Positions 32,359-54,756 of a stretch of 64,000 nt of DNA are shown in pieces (the stretch's first letter is position 1; every line of letters begins with the position of its first letter). The notes under the pieces are model-generated. The model did no database searches. It saw nothing but the letters and a program-made list of their open reading frames with translations, and was not told where the DNA came from. The stretch spans positions 13,084,001-13,148,000 of the forward strand of contig OZ076409.1 in assembly GCA_964187785.1 (NCBI GenBank), given 5' to 3'. This DNA is from Amphiscolops sp. MND2022 (taxonomy: Eukaryota). Both the position numbers and the translations under genes were made by a program.

Positions 32359-34003
32359 TGTCGCGGGCTACCGCCTGCGACGGGATTCTCTATTAAATCC
32401 CCGCCGGAAATAATGCACCAAATCCACCCCCAGGAGTATTACCAATCTGACCAAAAAGGACTCACCGATCAAAAGACATCAGCGACTCAACACATAACGA
32501 GAATGCAGTTAATAGTACCATATGAGACCGAAGGTCGGTCTGTCCACAATAAACTTTTTAAGCCTAAACTCATTCTTATGCGGCTATTAACTGTCAATTA
32601 GAATATTATTTTCATATGTTCAGTGTTTGTGTTACTTGAAGTTCATAGTTGATCAATGTACAATAACAATGGAAAGTTAAGTAAATTAGAGCTGTAAATT
32701 GACGCGTTTGAACAAGCAATTATACGTGGCAAAGTAAAAGAGTTCAAATACTTGTTTCCTTTGCCAAATTGTACACGCAGTCCAAAACTGATATAGCCAA
32801 TCACATCGCAGTGCTATATTAGCTGTAGCCGTTTGGACCTTGAGTCCACCATGGTGTTATTTATTTATAATACTTCTGACGTCACTGTGCTGTAGCTATG
32901 CGGACTCTAAGTCCACTGTGGTGTTATTTACACATTTAGCCGAATATTATGAATATCATGTAGCTGTGACAATTTTCCAATGCACATGTAAATAGTATTT
33001 GACGCTTGCTAGCCAGATTAGTAGTTTAACACTAAATACCCCCTAGCTTTGTTAAGGTTGCTGCTATTTATGGTGAACATGAAATGATGCAATAATGATG
33101 TAATTCTCTCAGGGCTATTTTTAGTCGCCCCTGAGTCTAAATTTAGACCGATGACCTGAAAAATTATGCTAGTCCTGCAGTGTGAAGTACAAATAGTAGG
33201 GACTACGGGTCACATGGGATCATTCGACTGATTATCAAATACCTGCCATTACGCTCACAATCACAAACTTTGACGAGATTCATTTGTACTTTTGATTAGT
33301 TAAAACCAGTCAGAATACCTGCCATTCAGTCAATACATTGTTGAACTAATTGAATCTTCAATGCCTTCAACTAGAAAGCAAAAGGATAATGAACAGCGGT
33401 CTAGACAATTAAACATGATGTCAGACGTGGAAAATGTTGACATAATGCTAGGAAGTTATTCTAGAGATGATGAAGAAAACGTAGCTAGTGAAAATGAAGT
33501 AAATTTGGACTCAGGGTCCAGTCGGCTACAACGGAGTTCAAATGTGATAGGAGAGGATTTTAGATCTTTACTAAAAATAAATAGTAGGGAAAACAGTGAA
33601 ATTACGATTGAGACCACTAGGATGATTAATGAAGAAACTTCTAATCAAATGTCGAGAAAACTGAGTGAAATCAAAAACAGTTTGAATTTTCAAATACAAG
33701 ATGCAATTAGCAATGCAATCACTGAAAAGATACTTCCCTCTATCCAAAATACGCTAGAGACACGGGGGAGAGAAAATCACACCTTGGCGGACCAAGCGGC
33801 CAATGGGCTACAAGATAGCTCAAGGGCAACTAATTTCACCGCAGGGGACCGAGGGTCCGGTGGGCTACAACGGAACTCCAAAGTAGAAAATGTCCAGAAA
33901 ATTTAGAGAAATTGTCACAGAAAATGTTTTGTGCAAGAAAACAGTAGACATATGTCCCGACAGAGTTCAATGGACTCTACTAGTAGCGAACAAAATCACG
34001 ACA
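32359..34003 (+). repeat. 5' LTR (1645 bp) of giant element
   Basis: Direct repeat of 53118-54756 with scattered substitutions. Confidence 0.95.
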
Positions 34004-35111
34004 TGGTGACAGAAGCCATCCCTACCTCACATCTGGTTCCTGAGTTTCTCATTGGACGTCCCATGCAATCCCGAGACCACCTGCAAAGACAAAATTCTAA
34101 CAATGATGAGTCTCAGGATTCAGTCCCCCAGGTCCCTGAGACCAAGTACTCCTTCTGATCCTATTAACCGTTTTGCAGAAGTACTAGTCGGCATGAATAA
34201 CCGTCCATCAGCACAAACACTGATGGTACGCCCAGTCAGCACGACTACACTGACGTTTGACGGCAAATCGCAGAAATTCGAACTTTTCGAAGATCTCTTC
34301 CACACAAGGATAAAAATGCAACCTGATAAGACTGAAACAATGAAAATAAACCATTTTCATTCATTACTACGCAAGAATGCGTTACAAACTTTCCGTAACA
34401 ATAATACGGCAAACAGGCAAACCTTGGAAGACATCTTGGCCGTATTTCGTCGGTAATACGTCAAACCCGAGTCCCAGGCGACCGCCAAACGCAAATGGCA
34501 TAGAATGCTATTTGACCCAAATACCATGAAATTGCCAGACTTCCTTGAGAAACTCAATCAAGGAGCATTAAAAGCGTTTGGTGAGAACGCCCAGGCAATG
34601 ATCGACAGTCTCCTATATGCCAAATTGCCGCCGAAATTGAAACGCTCAACCAATATGGCAAGACTTGAAAACGCTACTTACGAGGAAATAGTCACCCATT
34701 TAGAACGAGAGCTCGAACTCAATGGACTTGAGGAGGGGGACGACATTCCAGTTCCAACAAGGTGTACTGCCCCTACAGCAAAACGACCGGGAACTGGCCT
34801 TCTTTCCTCTGGCATTGATCCCAACATTACTGCAACTATTGCAAAAAACCTGGACATGTCAAGAATGACTGCCGAAAACTTAAGCGAAAGGAGGAACAAC
34901 GCCGCAACGACGGGCAGAATACCAAAAAAGAACATCCAGAATGTCCAACTTGCGACAAAACGAATCACCCGGCGGATCGATGTTGGAAAGGCGTTGGAGC
35001 CCACCTCAAGCCCAAAAACCTTAACTGGAGGACGCCACCACTACAGATACGTCCACCAGTCAAGAACACGTAAAAAAAACAACGTCAATTTTAAAAAACG
35101 CAAAAAACTAG
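33361..35111 (+). pseudogene. gag of giant element (starts inside the 5'LTR)
   Basis: MPSTRKQK... through LTFDGKSQKFELFEDLF, Zn knuckles CNYCKKPGHVKNDC and CPTCDKTNHPADRC; stops and frameshifts. Confidence 0.8.
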
Positions 35112-38100
35112 GTTCGCCACGACTCCAAATAAAAGAAAAACTCCGTGTCAGACAGTATATAAGATCTGACCCTCCTAATATATATTACACTGAGTATTAT
35201 ACAACTCTCAAAGAAACGTCATCAGCTGACTGGCAGCAGCAGATGAAGACTCCACCTACCTTTTCCACCACGTAGGACCCTATGTCCAACCGACTATAAA
35301 ACGATACCTCGACTACACAACTTATACCTCTTATTGATGACTATAACCAATATTACCTTGACCCTGACTATGGTTTCGACCCCTACTGGGAGGCTAATTG
35401 CTACAATCATCATCATCTACACTTTTACAACAATTATAACAAACCAAATCAGAACGTAGAGCCAGATTCCTCTGACATAGACCAAGCTCTGAATCCTGTC
35501 CTTGAAAACGCTCGAGTTGACCCATGGCAACACGGCACACAACTCACTCATCAAACGACCCACTCCGATGCTGGCGACGAATTTCACCAAGTCTCCCTGG
35601 CCACAGCCGTTGCGGCACGCTTCGTGAACACCCTAGCCACCAGAACAGGTGAACCAGACTATGTACCGCTGACAACCAACCTTGGTCTCAAATATAAACG
35701 ACGAATGCTCTATTTTCCAATGGATTTTGGCGAACTAACTTAAGGTGACCTTGTAGACATGGGAGCTCTTTCTAGCGCAATCTCTGAAGCTGATCCACGT
35801 AAAATCCGCTTATTAGCTCCTCAATCTATCGTCAAAGAGGGCCCAGCACCCAACTTCCAAATCATTGTTGCTAACGGACAGCTGGAGACACCAAAGAGCA
35901 CGGTCGATTTTAAATTTGAAATTGGCGACATAGAATTTCTTGAGACATTCATAGTCATGGAAAAACTCACTATTCCATTGTTTGGCTTTTCGTTCCTCCA
36001 ACGAAACAATACCATTCTGGACATGAGACAAGGAGTCCTTAATTTCCATTTCTTTTCCATGCAATTTAAGACTGCTGACCACAAATATACCAACGTCATG
36101 GAACCCATTTGCATTAGGGATGATGTAACTATCCCACCTAATGACCGACACATGGTCCAACTGACTTCGCAACTGTAGGAAGATACTACAGTTACTGGGA
36201 TCCTCCAACCGAGCAACACTCTCACAGATGATGGTGTCATTGCCTTCTGTGCTGCTCTAGTCACTTTGACCAATGGTCAGGTATCAGTTCACCTGAACAA
36301 CTTTACTGACAGTCCGCATACCCTCAAAAGAGGTACGCAAGTAGCCACTTTCACGGTCCTCACACCAGAACAGATGAAATATGTCAAACCTATAGATCCG
36401 TTGACCACATGGCACCTCTTGCAAGATAACCCTGAAAATGCTGCCTACTATGCAAGCAGCTTTATCAAATCTACCAAACCTGAGGACATCAAGGAACACT
36501 ACTGGTTTCCCACACTAGAGGACTCTGGGGACCCTCAGCATCATACGCCAATCCAGAAAAGAATTTTGTCTGAACAAATCAATCTTCAAGAACTAGAGAA
36601 ACTCAATCCTCAAAACAATCCTGAGTCGAGACGTGAATTTTTGTCCAAATTCGACGTGACAGTCTCTATGCTACAACCAACGGAAATCGCTCGCATAGAG
36701 GACCTTCACCAGGCATCGTTTCGACATAGGCATGAACGAGGACTTCAAGGTTAAATTGACACCAAAAGATGACTCCCCGGCCTACAGCCAAAGCCTACCA
36801 ACACCAATCAATCTCAAGGACGATATCCTTGTAGAATTAGCACTACTACACCGCTATGGGGTATTTACAACTCTCCCATTCTCCAAATATGCAAGCCCAA
36901 CTTCTGCCCATAAGAAATCCAATGGTAAAATCGGACTTTTAGTCGATTTACGAAAAATCAAAAACCTCATTTCGGATGACTATATAAACAACAATCACCC
37001 GTTGAGTACACTCACAGATGCAGCCCAACATATGGCCGGGAAAAAGCTATATTGAAAATTGGACTGCTCGCAAGCATACCATTGCCCACAGTTGGCCGAC
37101 CAGCGTTCCATCGAAATGCTTGCTTTCAATTTTGCCAGCAGAACCTTCGCATAAAGAAGATTGGCACAAGAATTTAGCAGAGTCCTATCGGCCTTTTCTA
37201 GTTTTATGCGCGTATACCTGGACAAAGTCATCAAAGCAGACCAATGTGCCCAATATGTTGATGATATTGGCATCGCAGCTAACGAAGCCGAACAACTAAT
37301 CAACAACATAAGGGCCACCTTCCAATGCATCCAGAACGCTGGTCTGAAACTTACCATGCATAAATGCCGCTGTGGTGCAACGGAAAATGATTTTCTTGGA
37401 CGTACCATCACTCCCGCTCAGAGAGTGAAGCCGCAAAGACATAGGGTCCAAAATTTTCTAGAAAATACGAAATTCTCGAAATCGAAGAAAGCACTGCAAC
37501 GTTACTTGGGATTCTTAAACTATAACAGAAACTACATCCCAAGGCTATCGGAAAAACTAACACCGTTTTTCAAATTGCTTACGAAACATGAAAAAGTCCT
37601 GGTAACTCCTACCTTTTGGAAATATATACAGAGATAAGTAAGGCTCTTGACCGATGTTGTGAACTACCGCTCAAACAACCCTTACCGAATAAGCAAATAG
37701 CCCTTGTGACTGATGCTAGCTTTTTGGCCGCAGGGTACGCAGTTCTCATCGAAGATGATCCCCTCGAAAAATATACATCAACGAGGAAAACTTTCGCGCC
37801 AGTAGCTTACGGATCAAAGACTTTTAATCCTACCCAACTGAAGATGTCCATTTACGCGAATGAATTTTTGGCAACTTTTTTTGCCTTCAAGGAATTCGGA
37901 CATATCTTTTGGGGAACCCCGAAACCAGTGAATATACTCACAGATAACAAATCTGTTACACGCTTTTTCCAAACTAAAATCATTCCACCGACCTTATGGA
38001 ACGCATGTGACTATGTAATCCAATTCAATTTCACAATTGCCCATGTTCCAGGCAAAAACAACACCACTGCCGACTACTAGTCCCGACTCGAAATATCTCC

Positions 38101-40600
38101 AAAGGAAAAACTAATTCTCAGAGAAGATATTCCAACGACACCGATTGAACTACACGTCCAATCAGCAGGAGTGTCCGAAGAGGAACACATTTTTTATACG
38201 GAGGATGATGATGAGTCGGAAGAGCAAATTTTACAACGTAAAAAACAAGCTAGAGACCACCCAACCAATCAACTACCGGATATCTCATTCGAAAAAATTG
38301 CTACACACAAAAGCAACTATTGCAATCTCGCAACGCTTCAAAAACTATCATACCCGAACTCTATAGCAGTAAAGCAAAACAATGACGTCATCTTACAACA
38401 ATTGCGACTCAAGATATTGAAAGAAGACTATTCAGAAACCACACTGTTACAAGACACTCGCTACCAACATTACTGTCGCCAGATGGAACGACTGTCTGTC
38501 ATGGATGGAATTATCACTAGGCAGTATTAAGATGAAACAGGATCCATCAAGTACAACCAAGTACTTTTACCGAAACACCTAGTCCCAGAATTACTTGAGT
38601 CCTTACTCGGAAAAGCCAATAGGAACCCAGGATTTCCCAAGATGCTCATCGAAAATCGACAAAAATATTATTATCCTGGCATCGCAAAAAGTGTCAAAAA
38701 ATGGGTTCAAAGATGCGAATTTTGTATAAACGACAAAAGAATCCCGAACTCATCCATCACACCTGAATTGCTCAACTTACCCGAATGGGACTTAGGCCCA
38801 GAGGACGCAATGCAAATTGATTTGTTGCCTAACCTACCCGCAAGTGGAAGATACGAAAACATAATAACCGCAGTGGATGTGTTTTCACGATACTTTTTTG
38901 CTTACCCAGTCACAGACGCTTCGGCCACAAACACGGCAAAGGTTATCCTTGACATAATGACCAAACACACCTACTTGCCCACTATTTTGATTACGGACGA
39001 AGGTACGGCCTTTACGTCCAAATTGGTAGCTGAAATTGCTCAAATTTTGGGAATTCAAGTGAAATGCGCAACTACAAAACACCCACAAACTACATTAGAG
39101 TGCACAGGCAGGCCTTATTTGCTCAAAGCGCAACTTTGTGCTTTCAATATCTCGGATTCCACGACCATACCTTTAACCGTGCAAAATTGGCAAATTATGT
39201 CATAAGTCCCGGATTCCACGGATTTCGTCGTGGAATCCAGTAACAAAAGCTTAGCGGTACGCACTGTCGACATGCAGCTGTGTCCCGGATTCCACAAAAA
39301 CGTAAGTTAAAACGTGTTTAAAATTGAATTAATTTAAATTTTTCTACCTTTCCAAAAATGATAACTCAAAATCAGCGGACCAATCAGAGAGCAGCGGCAA
39401 AAGTGTCATTATAGCAGCAGTTTTGGCGTGGAATCCAGGACAAGCCTTGTGGTGGAATCCAAGACACGCTTAACATCAAAGAGAAATTTTGCCCTGGATT
39501 CCACGACTTTTCTCAAATTTCCTGTCCGGGATTCCACGAAAAGCAGCAAAATAGCTTGCCTATGCACTGTAATGTATTGGTTAACTCGAACGCACACACG
39601 CTAGCCTCAAAACGAACCTAAAATGGCCTCAGGGGACTACCGGCGACAATGGCATAAATATTTGCCTTTAGCCGTAATAAACTATAATACGACCTACCAC
39701 GCCACCCTGGGCTGTGAACTATCCAGAATCTTTCATGGACGAATCCCATATAAGATATTAGATCACAAATTGGGCCTTAATCTAAACCCGAAGGTCCTTC
39801 CGACCACAGATTTTGCTAAGGAATTTCGAAGACGCACGCAAATACTACTCGATTCCACAAAGAAAAACATCATGCAATCCTATTTGAAATACAGAGAATA
39901 CTACGACCGAAAGGCCAAAGCCGCTCCTTTAAAACAGAACGACTTTTGTTTAATATTACAACCTATCGCAGATCACCAAGGATCCAAAATTCCGTATTGC
40001 AAATACAGTTGGAAAGGACCCAACATTGTAGAAAAAGTCTTACCAAACGAAAATTACATAGTCAGAAAACTAAACTCTGATAAAACACACAAATTTTGTG
40101 TCCAAACACACAGTCCGAACACAAATCTTACATCGTATCAGACTGCGCAAATACAAACCGAACACCGTCTTACCGGACATCCGACCGGAATGCAATTTGC
40201 AACCGGACGATGAAATTTTTATTCCACAGGACGACCTGTACGTCATTACGTGGGAAACCAATTTTGGAGAATTTCCCAATTCAACCAATGAAGTCGCATT
40301 TCTCGCGGGTCTATGTGCCACAGACACTTCCAATGGTTTGGAGGCCGATACTAGCCCACCAGACGCAATTTTCACCGACGTGGACTTTCGGTCCACTGGG
40401 CTACACAAAAATGATGATTTTGCTTCGCTTTAAAAAACCCGTTCACACAGTACAAATGATGAGAACGACGATCAACAATCGTCAGGGGGGAGCGGTACTA
40501 TCGTGTCCGAAGTATTAGATGATGAAAAAGATGATATGATCGTAGACAATGAAAGTCCTAGAGGGGGAAATATAACTTCACTGATGAATACAGATACTAA
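35112..40600 (+). pseudogene. pol of giant element (PR, dUTPase-like, RT, RNase H, IN)
   Basis: VDMGALSS (PR), QYVDDIGI (RT), VTDAS / LTDNKS (RH), IDLLP / ITDEGTAF / LERTH (IN), many disablements. Confidence 0.9.
39093..39574. mobile_element. Tc1/mariner-type MITE inserted in integrase
   Basis: TIR CATTAGAGTGCACAGGCA / TGCCTATGCACTGTAATG, TA TSD; removal restores KHPQTIG.LERTH. Confidence 0.9.
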
Positions 40601-40755
40601 TCAAACTTGTAAATTACGGCCCCGACTCTAAGTAATGTATTTTATACAGGACACGCTTGACTTTTGACTTTACGCAAAACAACAACAATAAACAAACAAC
40701 AGAACTAAAGTATTTACAAAATGGAGTATAGACTACAATTATACATATAGTACAA

Positions 40756-43700
40756 TTATTTCTTACTACTCCCAGCGATCAGTCGAGTGGCAGATTCAGC
40801 CAATTCATCATCAGTTAATAAGTGACTGCGATGTTTGTTTGTCTTGGGCACTGCAAAAGGCTTCAAGGGAGAATTACCTTCGGGCACATAGGAATCTTGA
40901 ACAGCATTTTTGGGTGCCTCACTTGGATGGAGGGCTTCTCTAATTTTCACTCTGCCAAAGTGATCCACACTGTCCCAAGGACTATACACATCAGTGAGCC
41001 CTGAATTCCCAAATGACTGCTCCAGAGAAAGGAAGCGAGTTACAGATGCGTCCGAAGTGAGAACATCGAGTCCTCGAGCAGAGTATCCAAGATATGACTG
41101 GATCGGCGCAATGACATCAAACATGGGGCTAAGGGGATCGTCCGTACGGTGTGACCCAAATTTAACTGGAGAGAAAGACAATCGAGGCTCGTCTAGACGA
41201 AAACAGCTTAGCCGGAATAGCCGGTGCAAATGAGGCCTGGTCCTGAGGGCCTCTTGTCCAGAAATGAACTCAATAGCATCGGCAATTAGCAGCTTGGGTT
41301 GTTGTGTGCCTGGGTGCGATTGGCGGAGGACGTCAAGGAATGACACGTACTCCTCAGTATAAACCAATTCGTCCTCCCTCTGCTGCACTACACCCCTCAA
41401 TCGGAAGCTGGAGAATAATTGCTTAAAGCAATATGAAGCGTTTTCAGGAGGATCGACCAGCATGATGTCTAAGTCAAATGAACCGAGCCCTTTGACGATA
41501 TCTGATGTCAAGCGGCTCAGTCCTTGTATACCTTTAAACAGAAAAATGACATAGCTACGAGCAGTTCTAGCAAATTCCTACTTGTTCCTTTTGGTGATGT
41601 CATCCAGAGTGAGGCCTTCATTTTTCTTGTCTCCTTCTCTGCTCCAGCTTTAACTTTACAAGGGGGATCCAATCTTCAATCGAGTTTTGATCGCGACAGG
41701 AAATCACTAATGGCAAGAGCGTTTACGTCTGGGATGGAGAGATTCAATATGGCCTGATGATCAGTCTCATTAGGTAAATTGGAAGGCCGGATGCATCTCC
41801 CCCCCCCCCCCACTTTAAATAGAAACTGGCTTAATTCGCGAAACACGTGGAAACCTCGGTCGCGTCGTTGCTTCAAATTGACCACGAAACTGGTGGTATA
41901 ATCCCGGACCAATCGGTAAGAGATTTCCAGTCGTGTCGGGAGGAATTCGATCACAGACCATGAACCAGTCCGGACTTTGTGGCTATAAAACAATACAACC
42001 AATGAAATACTGAAGGTACGAATGGCTAGAAATGGTTGGTCAGAAAGGTATATCACAAAATAATTTTGGAAAGTAAATCATTCCACGAAGGACTGGTAGG
42101 CCAGGTATCCTGACCAAGGAACTCTTGGGATGATTTTAGGATACAAATGAATGTAGTATACCATACCTGCCTACGTACTCCTTGCATCTCTTGGGAAGCT
42201 GAATGTTGCGTCAGGTAGTCGGTGACTTTAGTCCAATTCTTTAGCAGCTCCTGACACAGAGTGGGCAAACCATTCAACTCAAGCTGGCAAGTCCTGATGG
42301 CCTGAATTATAGAAACATCAAAGAAAATCCTTTGAAACTACTTATGGCTAAGCAAAACGAAGATTACCTTGGACAAATCAGGTGACAGCATCATCCACTC
42401 TAACTCAAGACTGGACCCAAGAGAGACAATTAGGTAATGCAAAACTGCAAAGAAGTCGATTCGCCCAAATACACGAGAGGCTTTCTTGTGCATAAGGGTT
42501 CTCAGCTGCAATTCCTCGAGTCTTGGGGGGCTTTGCACGGCATATGGTCTATAGGGGCTCAGATCTAATAGTTCGACGGTCTAAGAAGTGCAACCGGTTA
42601 CACTAATTATTTCGGGACCGGTGAAGATAGCACCCATCACATGTGATATCAGTGTAATCTCGGCCTGGCTCTGGCCCTGTGCCCTTCCAGTTATTTTCAG
42701 GAAGACTCTGCACAATTGGTCTCCTTGCCAAAAGCAAAGGAAACTGAGCAAAAAGATCCCATCATTGGCAAATTCCAAGGCATATTCTTTGTTGGAGACA
42801 TTGTGGTGCCCGATGTCACTTACAATCTCGAGGAACATTAGGTGGAACAGCACCTGAAACGCAAACCAATCATTATATGGGAAGTATGAGGACTGAACTA
42901 CCCAGAGACCTAGAAACAGGGGATGCTCATAACAAAACTAAACAACCACTAATTTAGTTGTCATAGTTGAGATAGGAAAATTTTGGATGATGGAAATACT
43001 CACTGTGAGGCGCTCTTTAGTCCAGTTGAAATCAGTGAATAGTGCTTGATGATTCACTACGACCCAATGTCCCGCCAGAAGTTGCGCTTAATGTCAATGT
43101 CACCATAAGCAGGAAGAAATCGCTCAAGCACAGAGATCTGGATCCTAGCCCGACTTTCTGACGAGTATGACACATGGTCTGCTCCGGCCATGTATTCATC
43201 GTAAAATGAGAGTTTCTCCCCAAGGTCAACTAACTTGTGGGATGCGAGCCTTGGTGTAAGGGTCAATCTTGTACAAGTATTCATATCTCCAGTGTTGGTC
43301 CCTTCTAAGGTGTTTCTCACTGGCATGATGTCTAAGGATTTCACGGACGCCCTTCCAATGAATGGAGATATTAGCCTTACAAATCTGGCAAAAGAATTTG
43401 TGTTTATTCCAGTTGGGATCAATGGGACCAGAAACGAAGATTCGGGTCCACTCCATGCCCTTAAAATAGGCCTCCTTCATCACCTTGCTTGTCCTTGAAA
43501 TTTTCCGCCGCTTGCTGGAGCCTTTGCCCTGTGCTGGGACAAAACGTTCTTTTGGGTCCCTGGAACGCTGCTGTCGATCCTGAATGGCTTCGTCCCTGAG
43601 AGCAGCTAAAGTTTGTGCTACGGGGCAGTCCGCATTTAGTGAGCCCACAGGGGACTCAAGGTCGATGCGACTACACCCAGGCTTAGACGAGACAAGAGGG

Positions 43701-44632
43701 GGCTCAGCGATTACTTCTGGGTCAGAATGCTCATACGAACAACCAATGCTGGCAAATCCGTCGTCGCTCCGAAGAGCACCACTGGTGTCACTGCAACCGC
43801 CAGAGGAAGAGTCTAGGTCCCGTCCCCAGCTTGTGACGACAGAAGAACCTCTTCTAGCGGAACCTTTCCTGTTGGTGGCTTTGCCAACTGGTTCAGTCGT
43901 CAGAGACAATTGGATAGCCCTGTAAATGAGGGTTTCCAGCATGTCGTACGACGCCCTGGCAGTCTCATCAGCCACTACTCGTAATACATTGTTAATCTGC
44001 CCTCCAGTAAATACTACGGCTGGATTCCCTGGAGGCAATCTAAAGGACCCGTTTTGGGCAAAACATTCCTTAATGAGGGCACTACTTCTACCTCCCAAAG
44101 AGAGAGGTCTAGGACCTACTGGGGGTTGGATTGCAGTGTCATCACTATCTTGTTCACTCGTGTCGGGTGGCGTTCTCCGGGCCCCAGGATGCAATGCATC
44201 CGTTAAAGTTGAACCTACCCCTTGTTCAGACTCACCGCCTGAAATGTGACCATATTCTGAGTCACTGTGGTTTGTTGTGGGCTGCTGAATAGTGACGTGC
44301 TTATCAACTATCGCCGGTCTCTTTTGACTTCCTTCAGTGACTCCGACCGGCATGTTGCCCCTAAGGGCTGCCTCAGCGGTAGAGCTTCCTGAGGGAGAGG
44401 CGGATCGTGCACGCTTTTCAGCTGGTTCTGAGTTCTCAGGTTCCGGGTTGTCAATAATCTGTCTTGGAGAGTCAAGGAACACTACGACTGGGGAACTTGG
44501 TTCAGGTAATTCAATGCTTTCAGGAAGTTGAGCGCTAGGGGTAATGACCAAAAGTTCACTGACGCTTTCACGGTCCGCTGTCTCAGTCACCTCTGTGAAT
44601 TCTCTGGCAGCTGCTTCTTCTAATTGGCTCAT
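40756..44632 (-). pseudogene. Antisense spliced gene inside the giant element: disordered N-terminus, BED-type Zn finger, hAT-transposase-like body
   Basis: ORF chain 44632 to 40756; FFCQICKANISI...ILRHHASEKH; candidate introns 42854-43003, 42302-42367, 41532-41581. Confidence 0.75.
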
Positions 44633-44872
44633 CTTTCATGTGATGTAAGTGCCACAGCTCTCATTTGATCCATTACTATCAGTGGCGAAAAGACGAGATA
44701 TAAGGGATAAGCTGGGAGAGTCTTGTTGCTGCGAAGACCCTTGGTCCATTGGTTCCGAACGAGTGTGGGCTTCGTCAATTATAGTCTGATGTTGACGCTG
44801 AGTTACCTCTGGCTGACTAGTTACGGTTGCCGTTTCATTTTCAACAGGCGTTTGCTGTGGTTGGTCTTCATT

Positions 44873-45227
44873 TTTAGTCGGCGTTTTCGAAGAAAATCCC
44901 GACTCTTACACAGGCTAGTTTTTTTCGTCAGTTCAACGCGTAACGTCCACATTTTGTGCATTAATGCAATTAATGCACATTTACCAACTTTTACCATATG
45001 TACTTAGTACTTCATTTTCAACGCATCCAAAGCGTCCTCCTTTTACATTTTTCGGCACTTTGCGACTTACCGGAAACTTCAAAAAAAAATTCAAAAAAAA
45101 TCGGAAATTTTTTTCTTCAATTTTTAGTTTTTTGAGAGCTTTTGTTGTCTCCAGTTGTTGAAAAAGTGGTTTTCGAGTCTTTTTGAACCTTAGAAATGGC
45201 GCCGACTTGGGCCGTTCCCGGCTTGTT
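44873..45227 (+). mobile_element. Complete short HINE-like element inserted in giant element
   Basis: TTTTTAGTCGGCG..CCCGACT start; GGCGCCGACTTGGGCCGTTCCCGGCTTGTTTTT end; inserted in a T-run, no TSD. Confidence 0.75.
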
Positions 45228-47063
45228 TTTGCCTAAACGGAAAGAAATAAATTTACGCAGTTCACTTCCTGAGTATGAATCCATTTTGCCGCACACTTTC
45301 AAAACTTCCGGAAGTAAGTTACTATTCTTGTTTCAAGGCGAAAACATTTCACGATGGAGGAAGTAAATTACGTCGAAACCAAACCCTGATCAACTTTGGT
45401 TAAGCCAAAACTCAAAAAAGAACCAACGTGATGATGTTTCCATATTGAGCAAGCAGAACTTGTGACAACGCCGCGTTTGATCTTGGAATGCTGCAAATTT
45501 GTATTTTTTTGGACGACAGTTGTTAGGGAAGCACTAAGGGCAAGTCTGTGGGAATTCGGACAGAGGGTCGGACATGGATGTATAGCAAGAATTGTGTTCC
45601 TGATTAATCCCAATTAAAATGTAACAATCGGAAATCGAAGTAAGCAGGTGAGGAAGCTATAAAGACTGATTTGTCGCAGAAACGACAGGAGGACGCTGTA
45701 TCACAAACACAATGAGAGAATACTCTCAAAAGGCTAAATATTTAAACTTGACTAAAATCTTTTCGACTGCAGACTGTTGAGTGATTTCAAAATGTTTACA
45801 TGAACATTACTAACCCAGGACGTCGTGGCTAAAATCACCTTAACTTAATATTAACCGATATAATTACAAACATGCATAGCCTTTTCATGGTTGTGGTCTG
45901 CCAGCAACATTCATGAAAACGGGCTTTTTTCGGCCTTCAAAACTTCCATTCACCTATTAGAGCATCGTTCATTTAATCTCACGATCTTTATTCACTTTGC
46001 TTGGAGGATTTACTCATTCATCTATCGCTACCGCCTCATTGGCTAACGCGCTGAGTGTAGACGCGCGGACCGGTGGTTCTTGATGGTGTTTTTATTTACC
46101 AGCGATTATTACCAGTCAACACTTTCATTGTTAATTATCTACTCTCTAGCTGTTGAACAAATAAACTGAGAACCTCTCAAGTGACCATTATTGAGTGTTT
46201 CAACCCATTCTTGAAGTTAACCTCATATTATAGGCCTACTTACAAGGAAAGTTAGGAAAAGTCCGGGGAAACTAGCGACTCTGATTCCCCGCGTAACCGT
46301 TTCCCGCGACACCGGGGAAGGCCCAAGGTTTACTCGGCGAGAACGGATCATTCTACCCATTTCGAAGTTAAAATCAAGTTGACATTACAACCATTGCAAA
46401 GAAAACCTTTTTGTCACGATTTTGCCGTGAGATGTCTCTACAATCTGACGTTGAGGAGTTCATCAGACCTTTGGTGAGTGCGCTTTATGAGTCCTCAGAA
46501 GAAAACATGGAAGTTGATTCCGCTCCAATGTCCGTGATCGAGCAGGAGCAAGACGCGGACAGCGATATTGAAGTGATTGCCTGCTACAGAAAAGCTCCAG
46601 TTTACCCACCACAGTTGGCCGGAGGGCAAGCAATGACTTTTGATCTGGACACTTGCGGCGAATAAAGGGCACAATACCCATACGGTCAGGCAGGATCAAT
46701 CGGTTCAACATTTGACCCATCTGACAGCCTGGTCGACTGGTTCGTTGGAAGCCCCCCCCTACACGTACTTATACCGCAGGTGATCTTGACCATCACATAG
46801 CAAATTGCAGTCAACTAGAGCCAATATCTTATTCCCCAATGTCACACCCGTTAATTGATCAGTGGTCATCAGGAAATACAGGTAATGACCAGTGGTCAGA
46901 AGATCTGCAACGGATCGATTCTTGGGCGTCCAATCCGCATATAACAGGACTTGCAATAGGCGCTAGTGGCCTTTGTGGTGAGCCAAATTATATCCAGCGT
47001 GGTGATTGCGCGGTGTGCGGCAATTCGTTCGCAACTATACAAGAAGAAATCACCCTTGGGTAT

Positions 47064-50000
47064 TATTGTATTCTGTGAGAATATCTCAATTCAAAACGTA
47101 TGTAAAATAACAATGTTTTCTCTGGATCGAAACGTACTATAATGAGGTCAAACTTTATCGAACTAAATGTTTGTAGGTAAATACAAACTCAAAATGGCAA
47201 GTTGTTTATCAACAGTTCTCAATTTCTCTATTCTTCATTTCCCCCTCTGTAATTGGATGGGAATTATCCGTTTGATTTCCGTTGCCGTCCAGATTGGTGT
47301 TGTGGTCGGTATGCCGTCCACGTCTTGGTTTAGGATCCGGATGTCCGTGATTGGCATGGTTGCTTTCCGTTGACTGGAACATTTGTGGTTGTGAACGGTC
47401 TACTGGTTGTCCTCGTCTTCCCGCTCGAGCATTTCTTCTGTTGTCTCCAGTAGTGGTGACAGGTTTAGTCGTTTTGCGGTGTTTCCTGTAATCAGATTGA
47501 TTAACTGGATTATTTAATCTAATGATTGGATTTGTTTTCGTCAGACGTTTTGACCGGCGTAGGTTAGTTTCTTGTGTGTTTTCTAGTTCTTTATCTATTT
47601 CAGTGCTAGAGCTAAGATTACTTGCTAATTCTAGATCTGAATCTATAGTATTAAATACCTTACCGTTTATGTCTTTCATGTGTAGGTCTTGTCCTGACTG
47701 CTGAGTGTCATTGATGACATGATCTATGTCGGATTCCGACATTTGTTCTGCGTTAATTGTGAGTGGTCCCATTGGTTTGTTGTTGTTTCTTCCCTGTTGT
47801 TTTTCGGGTGAGGTTGACGTTTCCCGGTTTCTGATGAACCTTGGTTTTCCTCTACCGAATGTTCCACTTTTTCGGATGTTCGGTGTTTCCGGGCTAGTGT
47901 CCAATTGCTCTTCTTGTGATTGGGATAGCTCTGGAGTTGTTGGTGGCTTGTCTTCTTTGCGGGAAAATCTTCCGTCCGGTCCTCTTGGTCCGGTTCCTCT
48001 GTTGGAGTTTTCCTGTTCAAATGGTGTAATTGGTTTACTAATCAGTTTTCGATGAATAATTTTATTTTCAGCTGTAGTTATGGTATGGTTAGTTCCCTTA
48101 ACCGCTGTTTGTAATTGATCGGAATAGGGACTTTCAAATTTTGATTTTGTGTTTTTCCATTCAAAGAATTGAAACGGGTATTTACTAACCGTTTTGGTTG
48201 ACTTTCTCTTTTGTTTCATGGGTAGATGGTCGGAACTACCGCCTTCTCCACTGAACGTGTAAACCTGTAGGGTTTCTGGTTTTGCTGAAATGGAATGGTT
48301 ATTGGTTAACTTTTCAATTTCTTTCAATTTTAGCATATTACTCAACTCCGTGTTTGGTTCTCTACCGAAGTGTAATTCAAATGCTGATTTTCTAAGTCTA
48401 GTGTGTGGGGTTGTCCGCATTACTCCTAAAGACAGATCGAGTGCTTTTCCGAACGGTTCACCCGCTTTTATGTTGGTTAGTAAGTTTTCTTTTAGTGTTC
48501 TCACCCCCCGTTCCGCTAGGCCAGTGGGAGTATGTATATACGGTGTCCCGTATATCAGTGAGATGAAATTCTTTTTACAGAATTCTCTGAAACAGTGACC
48601 TGTGAACGCTGACGCTTTATCGGTTCTAATCGTTTTAGGTATTCCGTTTAATTGGATGTATTGTTGAAGAAAAGTTACCGCCGTTTTTCCGTCTGTTGAT
48701 TTGCAAAGACTGGCTGCCGGCCATTTGCTAAACCGGTCCATGGAGAGTAAGATATAAAATTTTCGGTTCTCTTCCGTGATTGGTCCAATGAAATCCAATT
48801 GGATTTCTTCGTTTGGTGCGCTTAATGGTGGTAAACAGTTTTGTTCCGTTTTAGGTATATTTGGTTTAAGATTCTTACCGGAAAGTTTGCACGGTATACA
48901 GCTGTCGCACTTTCTTTGTATTGCTTCGGATATTTTCGGCCACCAGAAGTGTTTTGCCGCCATTGTCATCTTGTTGATGGCGGGATGGCCTTTGTGAAGC
49001 AGTGTGACGACCGTTGTTCGCAAATTTGTGGGGACAATTTTTCTTTCTTCAAAGAATACCAATCCGTATCTCGTGGATAGTTTTCGTTTGTATTGGTTGT
49101 ATTCCTCTGGAATGTTATCGTACTGTTTTCTTTCCAGGCACACGAGGGTTTTCAACAATTTCGGGTCGTTTGTTGTCTCCGTCATTAATAATTGGAGATC
49201 CGTAGCAAATTCTTTTTCGGTCTCCCTGACGGTGTTTTCATGGTCCCAGTTATTTGGTTCCAGAGCTTGTATCCTCGGGGCTTGTCCCATTTTAATATAT
49301 TGGACGCTTTTTACTCCGAGGTAGTTCGCCCAATTGATTGTGGGTACTTCCAGTACCGACGGTGCCATTTCCGAGTCACTGGAAATCTCTCCCTCCTCCA
49401 TCGGTGTCTCGTCCGGTGTTTGGCTTGTTGTCGGATGTTCTTGTGATGTGCTCTGGTAATCCTGTGGGATAAATCCGCCTTGTAAATTTCTGGTTTCTTT
49501 GAATTGCCAGTCCGGGAAGTAGTTCGTCTGATTTTGCGGGTTTGTAACTTCTATGGCAGGGCTTTCCAGTCGATTTATAATTTCGGTAAGCCTTTCTTCA
49601 ATTATTTTTCTCTCTCCGCGGAGGAATTTTGGCTCATGGTATTTCTTCCATTTGCCGTTTGATAGTCGGTAGATTCCCGGCTTTACGATGTTTCGCCATC
49701 GTTCAATTAAATTGATGGTTTCTTGGGACGAATCGATTCTTTCAAGATTGTCAATAGTTTTGGCGTCCATTATCGGTGAATTGACGTTACTGTTTGGAGT
49801 GTTAATGAGGCTGTGAATGGCGGTTTGTTCACGCGTGTTGTTCGATGACCGGTGTTTGTTTGCTTTTGTCGAGTTTGCTATGCTATTCGCCGATTGTGAT
49901 TGGTTGAAATGGTTGTTAAGGCAACCGAGTTTAGAAACGAATCCGTAGTGCGGTGCTATGCTGTTAATGACGTATTCTTCTTCGTATACGTCATCGCTTT

Positions 50001-53000
50001 GCGCCGGTGCGATTGGATTTCTACTCAAGTAATCGGTAAGCGCTAGATGTTTTCCGGCGATATGGTTTACATTTATCGTAAAGTGTGCTAATCGGTCCAA
50101 CCAGCGTGTTAGCCGCGCGCTATATGTTTTGTTAGAGCGGTTGCGTTTTATTAACGGTTCAAGGGCTTGGTGGTCCGTCAGGAGTTTGACGGGTTTTCCG
50201 TAGATGTAAAGGCGGAAGTGTTCTAAACCCCAAACAACCGCTAATAATTCCAGCTCGTTTATTGCGTATTTTTTTTCCGTGTCCGATAGAAATCTGCTTG
50301 CGAACGCTATCGGTTTTAAATCTCCATTTTCTTGTTCTTGCCAAAGAGTTGCACCTAGGCCTTTTGTACTGGCGTCTGTTGTTATGGTGTTCGATCGAAT
50401 GGAGCTATAGTGGGCAAGACACGGTATTTCCGTGATTTTGCGTTTTAACTGGTTAAATGCTTCGGAATGTTCCGTTGTCCAGTTCCAATTGTTTTTCTTT
50501 TTCAGTAGCTGTCTCAGTAGGTCCGTTTGTGCTGACAAATTTTCAATGTATTTTGACAAATACTGAATCGCGCCTAAAAAGGATTTTAATTCCTTTTCGT
50601 TTTTTGGTTCTCTCAGTTCTTGTATTGCTTTTAGTTTGTCTTGTAACGGTCTAATACCGTTTTGATCAATTTTATGACCCACCCATTCTATTTCAGATTT
50701 GAAAAATTCTGATTTGTTTTCACTGAGTCTGTAACCTGCGTTTTCTAGTTTAGTTAATACTTCGGTTAACTCACGTTTGTGTTGTTCTTTTGTCCCTTTT
50801 GTGACAATTAATATGTCATCTAGCCACGCCGGGTGTTTGTTCTCCAGTGTTTGGTCGATCTTTTCTTGAAAAATGGTCGGGATGTCCGCCAATCCGTAGA
50901 AACCCTTTAGGAATCTGTAATATCCGGTGAAGTTGCCTCCGGTTATTGCGAATATACACAGATCCTTTGCTAATTTTGATAGCTGCAATTGGCCATAGGC
51001 GTAATCCAGGTCCAGTTTTGATATCCAGATTATATCAGTTTCTCCGTCTGCTATTTTTCTTGATATTCGAGATATCAGCTCCTCCATATTCGGCATTTGT
51101 GCCTTTCTTTTCACGGTTATTTCGTTTAATTTCCGTGAGTCTAGAGCGATTTTGACCGTTTTATCTTTCTTAACGGTTATTACTGCTGGGCTTACAAAGC
51201 AGTTTTCGTCTATGTCGGTTGCTCTTTCTATGTGCCCGTTTTTCTTCAATTTTTCTATTTCTTTACCGACCGCTGGTTGTAAGTGTATCGGTATTGGTCG
51301 GCCTTTCTGTTGTATCAGTTTTGCATCCGGTTTTAGTTGAATATCTACCTCTATTCCCTTTATTGTTTTATTTTCGTGGAACAGGTTATTGAATTTTTTC
51401 TTCAACTCAGTTACGTCCGGATTTTCTTGGATATTTTGTATTTTCAGGTTAGACTTTTCTGTATTCAATTTGATTCCCAATTGATTCATCCAGTCCAGTC
51501 CAAGAAGTGGGTTTGTTCTTTTTGTTGTTATTAGTAATTCCAGGTTTTTTGTTTCTCCGTTGATCTCTACTTTTGCCGTTGTTTTTCCTTCGAACTTTAT
51601 TTTATTGTTGTTGACGTCTCTATACTCCGTGTGTAGAGAATATATAGGTGTTATATGGTTGAATAATTGTTTTGGTACCAGTGTGACCGGTGATCCGCTA
51701 TCAATTATGAATTTGATTGGTCGGTTATTAACCAATGCCGTCATGGTGAAGAATGGTTGTCCGTCTTTGGTGTTTTGTTTTGTTGAATGGACCATTCTTG
51801 TGATGAGGTGTATTCTGTTTGGTGACCATTCATCTTCTTCTGCGCTGGATGCTTCCGATTCCGGTTGGATGTGTTTTATTCTTCGGTCTGTCTTTTGTTT
51901 AGTTCTACACAGTTTCGCGTAGTGACCGATTTTTCCACAGTTTAGGCATTTCTTTGTTTTTGCCGGGCAGTCGTGGGATTTGCTCCAGTTTGGTGCGCCG
52001 CATCTAATACAGTCAACTTTTCTGAATTTGTTCGGTTTCTCTTTTTCCAATTTTTGGTAGTTTCTTTTTCTCTCTACGTGTTTAATTTTTGTTTCTTCTT
52101 CTGAGTCTCGTGATTCGTTCATTTTTTCGTACATGTATTCGTGGATTGTGTCGGTAATGGTTTCCACCGACATATCTCCTTTTTTGATTTTCTTTTTTAG
52201 ATCGTTGTCTCCAGTTGTTTTTCCAATGACTGAGAGGAATTTTGAGGCCAATAATTCTGCTGCTGTTATTTCTTCGAATTCGCAGTTTTTTTCTATTTCC
52301 AGGATTCGTTTCCAGGTTTCGGCTGCCGATTCTCCCGGTTCTCTTTTTAGATTGAAGAAGTCGGCCCTGCTATGGTGTTTGTTCCGTTCGGGTATAAAAT
52401 GTAATCTGAACAGTGCATATAGACGGTACAATGGTAAAGAGGTTGGTTCTCTTTCTCTTACCGTCTTTGTCATTTCTGTTAGTGCTGACTGTCCGATTGC
52501 CCAGATGAAGACATCTTTTATTTCCTCTTCTAATTGGTCCCTATATTGTGGCAATACTTCTTTGGAGTTTGTCATCTTTGATAGGTCCAATTCGCGAGTC
52601 ATTTTTATATATTGGATAAATTTCCTCCACCAGAGCTTTGCACTGGTGTGGTCATTTTTTTCCAAGATCGGTATGGGTAACTTCTGGGTAGTCGTCCGTT
52701 CAACCGATCGTGCAGTGGTATTGTTTGGTAGCGAGCGGCTGCTCGTTTCTCCCATGGAATTATTTGGTTCGTCTTCCATTGTATTGTAGTTTTCTTCTGA
52801 TATTTCAGAATGCTGTCTGCGCCATATTGTATTCTATGAGAATATCTCAATTCAAAACGTATGTAAAATAACAATGTTTTCTCTGGATCGAAACGTACTA
52901 TAATGAGGTCAAACTTTAGTTATCAACTAAATGTTTGTAGGTAAATACAAACTCAAAATGGCAACAGTTGTTTATCAACAGTTCTCAATTTCTCTATTCT

Positions 53001-53003
53001 TCA
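47064..53003 (-). mobile_element. Intact-looking Ty3/Gypsy (Mag-like) LTR retrotransposon nested in giant element
   Basis: LTRs 47064-47237 and 52825-53003; perfect TSD GGTAT; PBS TGGCGCAGACAGCA (tRNA-Ser-like 3' complement); PPT AGAGGGGGAAA. Confidence 0.96.
47209..52779 (-). CDS. Single-ORF Gag-Pol polyprotein (1856 aa)
   Basis: Two Zn knuckles (CIRC..H.C, CLNCGKIGHYAKLC), PR FIIDSGS, RT KLDLDYAY / WLDDIL, RH TDAS..ELE..TDH, IN HHCC + D-D-E (LDFIG, RTDKA, AERG); no internal stop. Confidence 0.95.
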   Translation of the reverse strand: MEDEPNNSMGETSSRSLPNNTTARSVERTTTQKLPIPILEKNDHTSAKLWWRKFIQYIKMTRELDLSKMTNSKEVLPQYRDQLEEEIKDVFIWAIGQSALTEMTKTVREREPTSLPLYRLYALFRLHFIPERNKHHSRADFFNLKREPGESAAETWKRILEIEKNCEFEEITAAELLASKFLSVIGKTTGDNDLKKKIKKGDMSVETITDTIHEYMYEKMNESRDSEEETKIKHVERKRNYQKLEKEKPNKFRKVDCIRCGAPNWSKSHDCPAKTKKCLNCGKIGHYAKLCRTKQKTDRRIKHIQPESEASSAEEDEWSPNRIHLITRMVHSTKQNTKDGQPFFTMTALVNNRPIKFIIDSGSPVTLVPKQLFNHITPIYSLHTEYRDVNNNKIKFEGKTTAKVEINGETKNLELLITTKRTNPLLGLDWMNQLGIKLNTEKSNLKIQNIQENPDVTELKKKFNNLFHENKTIKGIEVDIQLKPDAKLIQQKGRPIPIHLQPAVGKEIEKLKKNGHIERATDIDENCFVSPAVITVKKDKTVKIALDSRKLNEITVKRKAQMPNMEELISRISRKIADGETDIIWISKLDLDYAYGQLQLSKLAKDLCIFAITGGNFTGYYRFLKGFYGLADIPTIFQEKIDQTLENKHPAWLDDILIVTKGTKEQHKRELTEVLTKLENAGYRLSENKSEFFKSEIEWVGHKIDQNGIRPLQDKLKAIQELREPKNEKELKSFLGAIQYLSKYIENLSAQTDLLRQLLKKKNNWNWTTEHSEAFNQLKRKITEIPCLAHYSSIRSNTITTDASTKGLGATLWQEQENGDLKPIAFASRFLSDTEKKYAINELELLAVVWGLEHFRLYIYGKPVKLLTDHQALEPLIKRNRSNKTYSARLTRWLDRLAHFTINVNHIAGKHLALTDYLSRNPIAPAQSDDVYEEEYVINSIAPHYGFVSKLGCLNNHFNQSQSANSIANSTKANKHRSSNNTREQTAIHSLINTPNSNVNSPIMDAKTIDNLERIDSSQETINLIERWRNIVKPGIYRLSNGKWKKYHEPKFLRGERKIIEERLTEIINRLESPAIEVTNPQNQTNYFPDWQFKETRNLQGGFIPQDYQSTSQEHPTTSQTPDETPMEEGEISSDSEMAPSVLEVPTINWANYLGVKSVQYIKMGQAPRIQALEPNNWDHENTVRETEKEFATDLQLLMTETTNDPKLLKTLVCLERKQYDNIPEEYNQYKRKLSTRYGLVFFEERKIVPTNLRTTVVTLLHKGHPAINKMTMAAKHFWWPKISEAIQRKCDSCIPCKLSGKNLKPNIPKTEQNCLPPLSAPNEEIQLDFIGPITEENRKFYILLSMDRFSKWPAASLCKSTDGKTAVTFLQQYIQLNGIPKTIRTDKASAFTGHCFREFCKKNFISLIYGTPYIHTPTGLAERGVRTLKENLLTNIKAGEPFGKALDLSLGVMRTTPHTRLRKSAFELHFGREPNTELSNMLKLKEIEKLTNNHSISAKPETLQVYTFSGEGGSSDHLPMKQKRKSTKTVSKYPFQFFEWKNTKSKFESPYSDQLQTAVKGTNHTITTAENKIIHRKLISKPITPFEQENSNRGTGPRGPDGRFSRKEDKPPTTPELSQSQEEQLDTSPETPNIRKSGTFGRGKPRFIRNRETSTSPEKQQGRNNNKPMGPLTINAEQMSESDIDHVINDTQQSGQDLHMKDINGKVFNTIDSDLELASNLSSSTEIDKELENTQETNLRRSKRLTKTNPIIRLNNPVNQSDYRKHRKTTKPVTTTGDNRRNARAGRRGQPVDRSQPQMFQSTESNHANHGHPDPKPRRGRHTDHNTNLDGNGNQTDNSHPITEGEMKNREIENC

Positions 53004-53117
53004 GGTATCTAGAACAAACTCATATCCCGGAAGAAAACTATGCGCAGCGAGTTCGGAGGAGGAATGCTTTCTTAGCAGGTATGAGAGCCGGAAGCGTGGT
53101 TTTAGTCCCAGGGGGAG

Positions 53118-54756
53118 TGTCGCAGGCTACCGCCTGCGACGGGATTCTCTAGCAAATCCCCGCCGGAAATAATGCACCAAATCCGCCCCCAGAAGTACTA
53201 CCAATCAGACCAAAAAAGACTCAGTGACCAAAAGACATCAGCGACTCAACACATAACGAGAATGTAGTTAATATTACCATATGAGACCGAAGGTCGATCT
53301 GTCCACAATAAACTTATTAAGCCTAAACTCATTCTTATGCGGCTATTAACTGTCAATTAGAATATTATTTTCATATGTTCAGTGTTTGTGTTACTTGAAA
53401 TTAATAGTTGATAAATGTACCATAACAATGGAAAATTAAGTAAATTAGAGCTGTAAAAGTGATGCGTTTGAACAAGCAATTATAAGTAGCAAAGGAAACG
53501 AGTTCAAATACTTGTTCGTTTGCCAAATTGTACACGCAGTCCAATACTCATATAGCCAATCACATCGCAGCGCTATATTAGCTGTAGCCGTTTGGACCTT
53601 GAGTCCACCATGGTGTTATTTATTCATATTACTTCTGACGTCACTGTGCTGTAGCTATGCGGACTCTAAGTCCACTGTGGTGTTATTTACACATTTAGCC
53701 GAATATTATGAATATCTTGTAGCTGTGACAATTTTCCAATGCACATGTAAATAGTATTTGACGCTTGCTAGCCAGCCTAGTAGTTTAACACTAAATACCC
53801 CTTGCTTTGTTAAGGTTGCTGCTATTTATGGTGAACATGAAATGATGCAATAAAGATGTCATTCTCTCAGGGCTATTTTTAGTCGCCCCTGAGTCTAAAT
53901 TTAGACCGATGACCTGAAAAATTATGCTAGTCAAGTAGTGTAAAGTACAAATAGTAGGGACTACGGGTCCCGAGGGATCATTCGACTGATTATCAAATAC
54001 CTGCCATTACGCTCACAATCACAAACTTTGACGAGATTCATTTGTACTTTTGATTAGTTAAAACCAGTTAGAATACCTGCCATTCAGTCAATACCTTGTT
54101 GAACTAATTGAATCTTCAATGCCTTAGAAAGCAAAAGGCTAAAGAACGGCGGTCTAGACAATTGGACATGATGTCAGACGTGGAAAATGTTGACATAATG
54201 CTAGGAAGTTATTCTAGAGATGATGAAGAAAACGTAGCTAGTGAAAATGAAGTGAATTTGGACTCAGGGTCCAGTCGGCCACAACGGAGTTCAAATGTGA
54301 AGGAAGAGGATTTTAGATCTTCACTAAAAATAAATAGTAGGGAAAACAGTGAAATCACGATTGAGACCACTAGGATGATTAGTGAAGAAATTTCTAATCA
54401 AATGTCGAGAAAACTGAGTGAAATCAAAAACAGTTTGAATTTTCAAATACAGGATGCAATTAGCAATGCAATCACTGAAAAGATACTTCCCTCTATCCAA
54501 AATACGCTAGAGACACGGGGGAAAGGAAATCACACCTTGGCGGACCAAGCGGCCAATGGGCTACAAGATAGCTCAAGGGCAACTAATTTCACCACAGGGG
54601 ACCGAGGGTCCGGTGGGCTACAACGGAACTACGAAGTAGAAAATGCACAGAAAACTTGGAGAAATTGTCCCAGAAAATGTTTTATGCAAGAAAACAGTAG
54701 ACATATGTCCCGACAGAGTTCAATGGACTCTACTAGTAGCGAACAAAATCACGACA
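53118..54756 (+). repeat. 3' LTR (1639 bp) of giant element
   Basis: Direct repeat of 32359-34003. Confidence 0.95.

Follow-up and report, generated by a model that had tools for sequence, protein, structure and literature searches.

An LTR (long terminal repeat) retrotransposon of the Ty3/Gypsy type in Amphiscolops sp. MND2022 carries, antisense to its own genes, a gene whose product is very probably descended from a hAT transposase. The element lies in a stretch of 64,000 nucleotides (nt) on contig OZ076409.1 (positions 13,084,001 to 13,148,000; assembly GCA_964187785.1), which we call the window and number from its first letter, and the antisense gene sits between pol and the 3' LTR on the minus strand (45284 to 40756). 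We tentatively propose that this gene would encode a spliced, non-cutting, hAT-derived protein that serves as the element's own activator or anti-silencing factor by way of a spaced palindrome, GAC-N5-GTC, in which the host element, and not its neighbors, is enriched. If true, one transposon class would here have domesticated another, in a system made up of a protein and an address code.

The host element has two LTRs, a 5-bp target duplication (GTATG/GTTTG, one mismatch), a TGG resembling a primer-binding site (PBS) at 34004 directly after the 5' LTR, a polypurine tract, and protease, reverse transcriptase (RT), RNase H and integrase in the order expected of Ty3/Gypsy elements. Its LTRs have diverged by 4.3% (70 of 1637 aligned bases) and its gag-pol is disrupted by stops and frameshifts. 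Without a second Gypsy element nested in it, the host element measures about 16.5 kb, and the interval from pol to the nested insertion is 6.6 kb. The features of the host element and of the antisense gene are as follows.

32359 to 34003, plus strand: 5' LTR of the host element, about 1.64 kb, with TG...CA ends
33304 to 40433, plus strand: gag-pol of the host element, with protease, RT, RNase H and integrase in Gypsy order
53118 to 54756, plus strand: 3' LTR of the host element, with the polypurine tract upstream
45264 to 45364: four GGAAGT sites around the antisense start codon, two of them forming a 12-bp palindrome at 45304
43004 to 45284, minus strand: likely exon 1, with start motif, extension containing a conserved island, CCHH finger and helical region; broken in this copy
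43300 to 43480, minus strand: CCHH zinc finger, C-x2-C-x16-H-x5-H with upstream W and F; all ligands in 133 of 166 homologue rows
42854 to 43003, minus strand: likely intron 1, 150 nt, GTGAGT...TTTCAG, from homologue open reading frames (ORFs)
42368 to 42853, minus strand: likely exon 2, RNase H-like core, from homologue fold and alignment; Glu codon at 42775 and Ala at 42769 (first-carboxylate strand), Gly at 42595 and Cys at 42592 (second-Asp region), C/DxxH-equivalent at 42526-42515
42302 to 42367, minus strand: likely intron 2, 66 nt, GTAATC...ATTCAG, from homologue ORFs
42167 to 42301, minus strand: likely exon 3, helical and kept in homologues, with a donor-like GTATGG following at 42166
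40756 to 42166, minus strand: likely 3' part of the antisense gene, assigned by position and orientation

An earlier, sequence-only reading had described a catalytically dead hAT transposase with a BED finger at 42053..43480. The peptides that it quoted all occur in one minus-strand frame, 43480-42053, and its motifs are real, but the gene is larger and begins at 45284, at a start motif common to the homologues (tblastn matches of many homologues fall there). The antisense gene is likely spliced, judging from the homologous proteins described below, which are mostly ORFs called on unspliced DNA and therefore reveal splice sites. The peptide join ERLT/VLFH corresponds to a GT-AG interval of 150 nt (43003-42854), at whose donor, GTGAGT at 43003, 55 of 69 homologue ORFs continue with 'VS', and Val comes next in 50 of 57 ORFs at the intron 2 donor, GTAATC at 42367. 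Intron 1 is missing in P0002, P0049, P0157, P0159 and P0161 and intron 2 in P0008 and P0147, the frames of which cross uninterrupted; these homologues suggest that introns were lost or gained while the antisense gene was carried by a retrotransposon. Exon 3 is conserved and looks helical. The 3' part terminates in a 273-amino-acid open frame (41577-40756). It has no homologue among 335 proteins and no Pfam or hAT match, so its membership in the gene rests on position and orientation; for this C-terminal ORF a word-indexed search among longer proteins likewise found nothing, and the exon-2/3 profile does not match it.

This copy of the antisense gene is a pseudogene: two stop codons (44638 and 42583) interrupt it, its frame shifts near 43232 and again near 43063, and an insertion of repeat-like DNA occupies ~45230-44870. 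No pair of terminal inverted repeats (TIRs) with an 8-bp duplication was found around the gene, in agreement with the earlier reading, and among 93 short inverted pairs in this copy none has an 8-bp duplication with at most two mismatches. At the antisense start, GGAAGT reaches four sites per 120 nt, against at most two elsewhere in the window, and we infer that this cluster is a candidate internal promoter of the antisense gene. We take GGAAGT to resemble an ETS core.

The case for hAT descent is drawn from the core. We folded residues 255-606 of P0002, a homologue without intron 1, with 60 sequences in the alignment, and obtained a model with a mean predicted local distance difference test (pLDDT) value of 67, rising to 79-92 over the core. 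The core has the topology strand-strand-strand-helix-strand-helix preceded by a long helix, which is that of a hAT-type RNase H-like core, at middling scores. In Foldseek the top match, and the sole match at E<=1e-3, was the Hermes transposase (8edg, E 5.1e-4), with further Hermes entries at ranks 3 (4d1q), 4 (8sjd) and 9 (2bw3). In VIA-align the Hermes chains gave the longest alignments (109-116 residues at Z 6.5-7.1, against 73-89 residues in other rows) and included the helix preceding the first strand, which the other rows did not; 2bw3, for example, aligned over 112 residues (Z 7.1, root-mean-square deviation [rmsd] 3.2, model 182-300 on chain 142-267). Of ten ESM Atlas rows shown, nine carry a Pfam family, and all of these are hAT families (DUF4371, FAM200-ZBED5 RNase-like, DUF659, ZBED1 RNase-like and zf-BED; scores 0.87-0.91). 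The RNase H-like hAT fold that the sequence-only reading had predicted by eye thus held up when compared with Hermes, and because fold search and ESM Atlas are independent methods that agree, we consider hAT descent of the antisense protein very probable.

The zinc finger lies N-terminal to this core, where hAT transposases carry their BED domain (PMC10368747; statements taken from this and the other cited papers refer to those parts of their text that were available). Its ligands are encoded at 43390 and 43381 (Cys) and at 43330 and 43312 (His), its upstream aromatics are conserved (W in 161 of 165 rows, F in 157 of 166), and its CCHH/CCHC ligands are of the BED type. A 'BED-position CCHH finger' is a safe description. 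Nothing was found for the finger in a word-indexed search among longer proteins, and PDB sequence searches gave no relevant match.

Hermes activity requires D180, D248, R318, W319 and E572 (PMC6027215), and H268 of the CxxH motif is also needed (PMC4763223, PMC7780238). As the profile matches listed included no annotated hAT transposase, a residue-by-residue alignment to hAT sequences was impossible, and we placed the corresponding positions by fold topology and alignment end points, using an exon-2 alignment of 82 rows from 245 proteins searched, in which rows are related and many are decayed. On the first strand, codon 42775 is Glu in 46 of 50 rows (92% conserved) and Asp in one, and two residues on Glu occurs in 31 of 50 rows, Ala in 10 and Asp in none; Asp is found at either candidate position in 1 of 44 rows, and an acid is kept at one of the two in 43 of 44. 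The register of the first Asp is ambiguous by two residues: several integrase alignments, with the integrase numbering that we presume to apply, set the first catalytic Asp on the conserved Glu and others begin one residue later, and the hAT pattern quoted by the earlier reading favors the later column. The first catalytic Asp position most likely holds the conserved Glu. In the second-Asp region (the seven columns that close strand 4) Asp is present in 0 of 44 rows and Glu in 2 of 44, the prevailing residues being Gly (64/75) and Cys (45/73). The C/DxxH motif occurs in 0 of 64 rows, and the column of Hermes H268, set by three Hermes alignment ends at a constant offset (297/264, 300/267, 302/269), holds His in 0 of 67. 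For the third catalytic Glu (E572) and the C-terminal dimerization domain (PF05699), a Pfam scan of 40759-41577 gave no match in this one decayed copy.

The earlier claim that both Asp residues are replaced was therefore right about the second, which is gone, and has to be modified for the first, which most likely became a conserved Glu rather than being lost. Comparison across copies of the Asp-Asp-Glu (DDE) positions, which that reading had asked for, places the loss of the first Asp, the second Asp and C/DxxH in the family as a whole and not in this copy only. Eleven near-identical full-length copies show the same active-site states, and since these young, intact copies share them, the loss is ancestral and does not reflect decay of the present copy. 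It is quite probable that the protein has no transposase activity.

The family is large, and its resemblance to the antisense stretch is far beyond chance. A phmmer search with the antisense stretch (42053-43519, stops as X; the best 150 of 423 proteins listed) found 423 proteins at E<=1e-3 and 29 at E<=1e-30, and a profile search added 90 new proteins among the 100 matches listed, none of them an annotated hAT transposase. The 20 homologue clusters looked up are unnamed ENA predictions, and no related loci were found in metagenome and viral contigs. The 11 full-length members of 844 amino acids differ from P0156 by 2-7 residues, and many near-identical copies have open frames of 600-850 amino acids. 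Several gene-carrying subfamilies are highly multiplied, with clusters of 24-69 members. Because subfamilies that are 31-64% identical keep finger and core, it is quite probable that the antisense protein has been kept by selection. One homologue, P0236, runs straight on from the antisense-gene frame into a peptide (residues 610-657) that shares 50% identity with the part of this element's Gag that lies at the PBS; P0236 is likely a rearranged copy, and it gives a hint that homologues lie near related elements.

Upstream of the finger this copy has an open frame of 384 amino acids. The sequence-only reading had described it as an acidic Ser/Pro-rich extension of about 380 amino acids, and the open frame and the richness in Ser and Pro (31% together with Thr) stand; in the family, however, the extension is about 480 amino acids long (387-552, median 479, in 45 proteins with the start motif) and only mildly acidic (Asp plus Glu 14% vs. 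Lys plus Arg 9%). Within this otherwise variable extension an island at ~44090-43910 on the minus strand is conserved in 85-90 of 100 rows and is likely helical, and we regard it as a candidate recruitment domain.

The second component of the proposed system is the palindrome. The LTR carries a 24-bp repeat in both orientations, a degenerate pattern of which has nine matches, all inside the element, and none in shuffles. A matrix built from five LTR sites finds four internal sites of at least 15 bits (0.015 expected); the nested element and the flanks, 47 kb in all, have none. The spaced palindrome GAC-N5-GTC is dispersed over 32526..46897, and its positions, together with the nested element that served as a control, having neither the antisense hAT-like gene nor GAC-N5-GTC, are listed here.

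5' LTR, six sites by motif count: 32526, 32836, 32903, 33201, 33508, 33847
Internal, pol side, nine sites: 35276, 36027, 36147, 36268, 36934, 37438, 38072, 38490, 40383
Internal, after pol, six sites: 43061, 43169, 43653, 44736, 45559, 46887
47064 to 53003, minus strand: nested unrelated Gypsy element with a 1874-amino-acid frame, ~175-bp LTRs and a GGTAT duplication

As the motif was discovered in the LTR, where it occurs 6 times against 0.2 expected, the internal count is an independent test, and the 13 kb of internal DNA hold 15 sites against 2.2 expected (0 of 200 shuffles), nine of them between 34003 and 40500. Among the controls, the nested Gypsy element has none, the left 32 kb have three (4.1 expected) and the right flank has none; the enrichment thus belongs to the host element and not to its neighbors. 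The motif is often GGAC/GTCC, sometimes followed by N4-RRCTACA, and the GGAC half is present in 11 of the 15 internal sites (P 0.008). Internal sites fall in different frames, in both genes, in the spacer and in non-coding DNA. Other spacings of the same half-sites in the element, namely 2-4 and 6-8, show no clear enrichment, and a spacer of 9 occurs six times against 2.3 expected (8 of 200 shuffles); in the flanks two spacings are in excess, 6 on the right (seven sites) and 7 on the left (12 sites), likely owing to repeated DNA in those regions. In the homologue extensions, the peptide traces that the motif would leave in other frames are no commoner than expected by chance, apart from one frame that is enriched at one inherited position. 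This is the trace of site 43653, present at the same position in 6 of 56 divergent representatives, and as it reflects inheritance of a single site it is not independent evidence.

On the basis of these findings, we envisage that an ancestral element was likely invaded by a hAT transposon in reverse orientation, and that this transposon would subsequently have lost its ends and its active site. Its introns may persist since, lying antisense to the genomic RNA, they escape sense-strand splicing, and the gene would likely be transcribed from an internal promoter near the GGAAGT sites. Hermes binds a quasi-palindrome with two of its BED domains, in a 2:1 complex (PMC10368747), and by analogy a dimer of the antisense protein would read the two half-sites of GAC-N5-GTC with two fingers, a step whose chances we judge to be evenly balanced. 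The extension rich in Ser, Pro and Thr would then recruit host factors that open the chromatin of the element or increase transcription from its LTR, in the manner of VANC and TnpA of plant DNA transposons; overall, such recruitment is possible, although we would not presume it. The motif bound by VANC21 is enriched in no element but its own (PMC5735166), and transposases can activate their own copies, the regulator TnpA itself being transposase-derived (bioRxiv 10.64898/2026.08.24.746577). It is conceivable, though short of probable, that an animal LTR lineage in this way tamed a hAT transposase into an activator with matching palindromic sites, protein and motif possibly co-diverging between subfamilies.

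A number of observations weigh against this proposal. Residence inside a Gypsy element is established for this copy alone, and the motif enrichment was counted in one element within one 64-kb window. The GAC-N5-GTC sites lie largely in coding DNA, unlike those of VANC21, and could be read by a host factor instead of the antisense protein. There is no match at the sequence level to Pfam or PDB hAT models; the structural match of the core is middling (Z below 8, template-modeling scores 0.23-0.29), actin-like and kinase folds score level with or slightly above Hermes (best 9b78, Z 7.6, rmsd 2.9, 79 aligned), and the C-terminal ORF falls in ESM Atlas clusters that are photolyase-like (0.92, 147 shared features) and not hAT. 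The BED finger of the sequence-only reading survives as to ligands, aromatics and position, but a model of the window's own 83 residues (121 sequences, pLDDT 86) ranks the U1C/matrin-type finger of TUT4 (Z 5.3, rmsd 3.4, 68 aligned) above BED domains (Z 2.2-3.1; Hermes 8eb5 at Z 3.1, rmsd 3.5, 49 aligned; ZBED2 at Z 2.9), and the zf-BED profile matches 1 of 117 proteins at E 0.095 and 1 of 10 at E 4.1. Finally, a carboxylate is kept at the first active-site position (43/44) and the second may be Cys (45/73); since the D248C mutant of Hermes retains hairpin formation in Mn2+ (PMC2533014), some residual chemistry is possible.

The ranking of the finger raises the alternative that the hAT-derived protein binds RNA, acting in export, packaging or the shielding of double-stranded RNA from small-RNA pathways, while a host factor reads the motif. 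TUT4, TUT1, SF3A2-type, U1C and JAZ fingers all rank above or level with BED, and the H-x5-H spacing followed by a long helix fits them; however, the finger scores are all low (best Z 5.3), BED entries are listed too (8eb5, 2djr, 8edg, 2ct5), the finger occupies the BED place of hAT transposases (PMC10368747) and the core is a DNA-handling fold, so that we hold this alternative to be unlikely. The same motif data would be accommodated if the protein bound the palindromes to repress the element, as a form of copy-number control, or to organize its complementary DNA (cDNA) for integration, and sites in both LTRs and pol would suit cDNA coating. High multiplication of the gene-carrying subfamilies suits promotion better, as the extension suits recruitment, and we find repression or cDNA organization rather unlikely. 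A tether that binds host DNA or chromatin together with integrase is improbable: hAT cores bind target DNA and accessory domains of transposable elements can steer integration (PMC13547354), but a tether leaves unexplained a motif that is element-specific and shows no enrichment in the flanks.

Two further alternatives concern the nature of the protein itself. The core might be of non-hAT origin, from another RNase H-like or an actin-like protein, or be an altered nuclease that uses the conserved Glu. The tie in Z scores with kinases and actin-like folds and the conservation of Glu (46/50) and Cys (45/73) point in this direction, whereas Atlas and Foldseek both favor hAT, only Hermes aligns the preceding helix and a second carboxylate is absent in either register; we consider it quite improbable. 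That the gene is carried as a passenger, being a hAT insertion that has decayed or is non-autonomous and plays no role for the retrotransposon, would be in keeping with a pseudogenized copy, with the nested insertions common in the window and with a residence in Gypsy known from one copy. It is very improbable given that subfamilies 31-64% identical share the active-site loss and conserve finger and core, that frames of 600-850 amino acids are open in many near-identical copies, that the start motif is kept 400-550 amino acids upstream and that TIRs were not found. We therefore retain, with due caution, the activator or anti-silencing factor as our preferred reading.

With hAT transposases (Hermes 8edg/4d1q/2bw3; DUF4371/FAM200-ZBED5-type, DUF659) the antisense protein shares the order finger, helical region, RNase H-like core. 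Unlike them it has no second Asp and no C/DxxH, its first Asp is likely Glu, it has an extension of ~480 amino acids, TIRs were not found and it is encoded antisense in an LTR retrotransposon. The antisense ORFs of plant Gypsy elements (Retand TRP28/PF04195, maize Grande, rice RIRE2) occupy the same place between pol and the 3' LTR (PMC11963269), and they too are retained lineage-wide and predicted to bind DNA and regulate the element (PMC11963269). The available text of that study reports no similarity of TRP28 to other transposable elements and a domain confined to flowering plants (PMC11963269). Pfam scans of the window's proteins and of the homologues gave no match to PF04195, and, unlike TRP28, the gene described here is traceable to a hAT donor and likely spliced.

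In the VANC system of VANDAL transposons, too, an accessory gene goes with a short motif whose enrichment is confined to the element itself (PMC5735166), a pattern that we find here within one 64-kb window. VANC proteins differ in being encoded by a DNA transposon and derived from MAIN-like proteins (PMC13547354), and VANC21 sites are mainly non-coding and co-oriented, with binding demonstrated (PMC5735166), whereas GAC-N5-GTC is a candidate site proposed from sequence. TnpA of Spm and domesticated transposases such as MUG/FAR1 likewise became regulators by losing catalytic residues; they belong to the same DNA-transposon family or to the host, and the protein described here belongs to a retrotransposon (bioRxiv 10.64898/2026.08.24.746577). 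The available text of that preprint contains neither the word 'retrotransposon' nor 'LTR', and we found no hAT-derived gene in an LTR element in the literature covered, which excludes most subscription journals and Repbase. Gypsy elements with antisense extra ORFs are already known, as are regulators derived from transposases, and what is described here is a hAT-derived accessory protein in an LTR element. Transposases are known to have been domesticated by hosts and within DNA-transposon families, and their capture by a retrotransposon would open another route. As far as the available text goes, neither a traceable origin nor a target has so far been known for the antisense extra genes of Gypsy elements (PMC11963269); a likely hAT donor and a concrete candidate site make their role testable, and should the protein relieve silencing, animals would have an equivalent of the plant VANC systems.

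The host element contains a second, decayed accessory ORF on the sense strand, which diverges from the antisense gene:

46432 to 47063, resuming at 53004-53150, plus strand: second accessory ORF

It has an acidic start and a Cys-rich stretch, is split by the nested Gypsy element and enters the 3' LTR; Pfam gave nothing at the cut-off for 46432-47063. A 200-codon frame inside the LTR (33304-34003; 54108-54756) appears to be the head of gag, reading through the LTR end and the PBS. The integrase is interrupted by a 482-bp insertion (39093-39574) resembling a miniature inverted-repeat transposable element, with imperfect terminal inverted repeats and TA on each side. The nested Gypsy element is nearly intact, and the PBS-side end of its short LTRs departs from the usual CA; a decayed relative of it lies at ~19400-25400 on the minus strand, a region that holds one GAC-N5-GTC site. 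Elsewhere in the window there are four tandem units of ~1177 bp each, 85-98% alike (24776-29522), a Tc1-like transposase remnant (17855-18873, plus strand) and an intronless ORF of 489 amino acids with a GAS domain (12263-13732, minus strand; PF13851, E 3e-78), which is likely a ciliary gene of the host.

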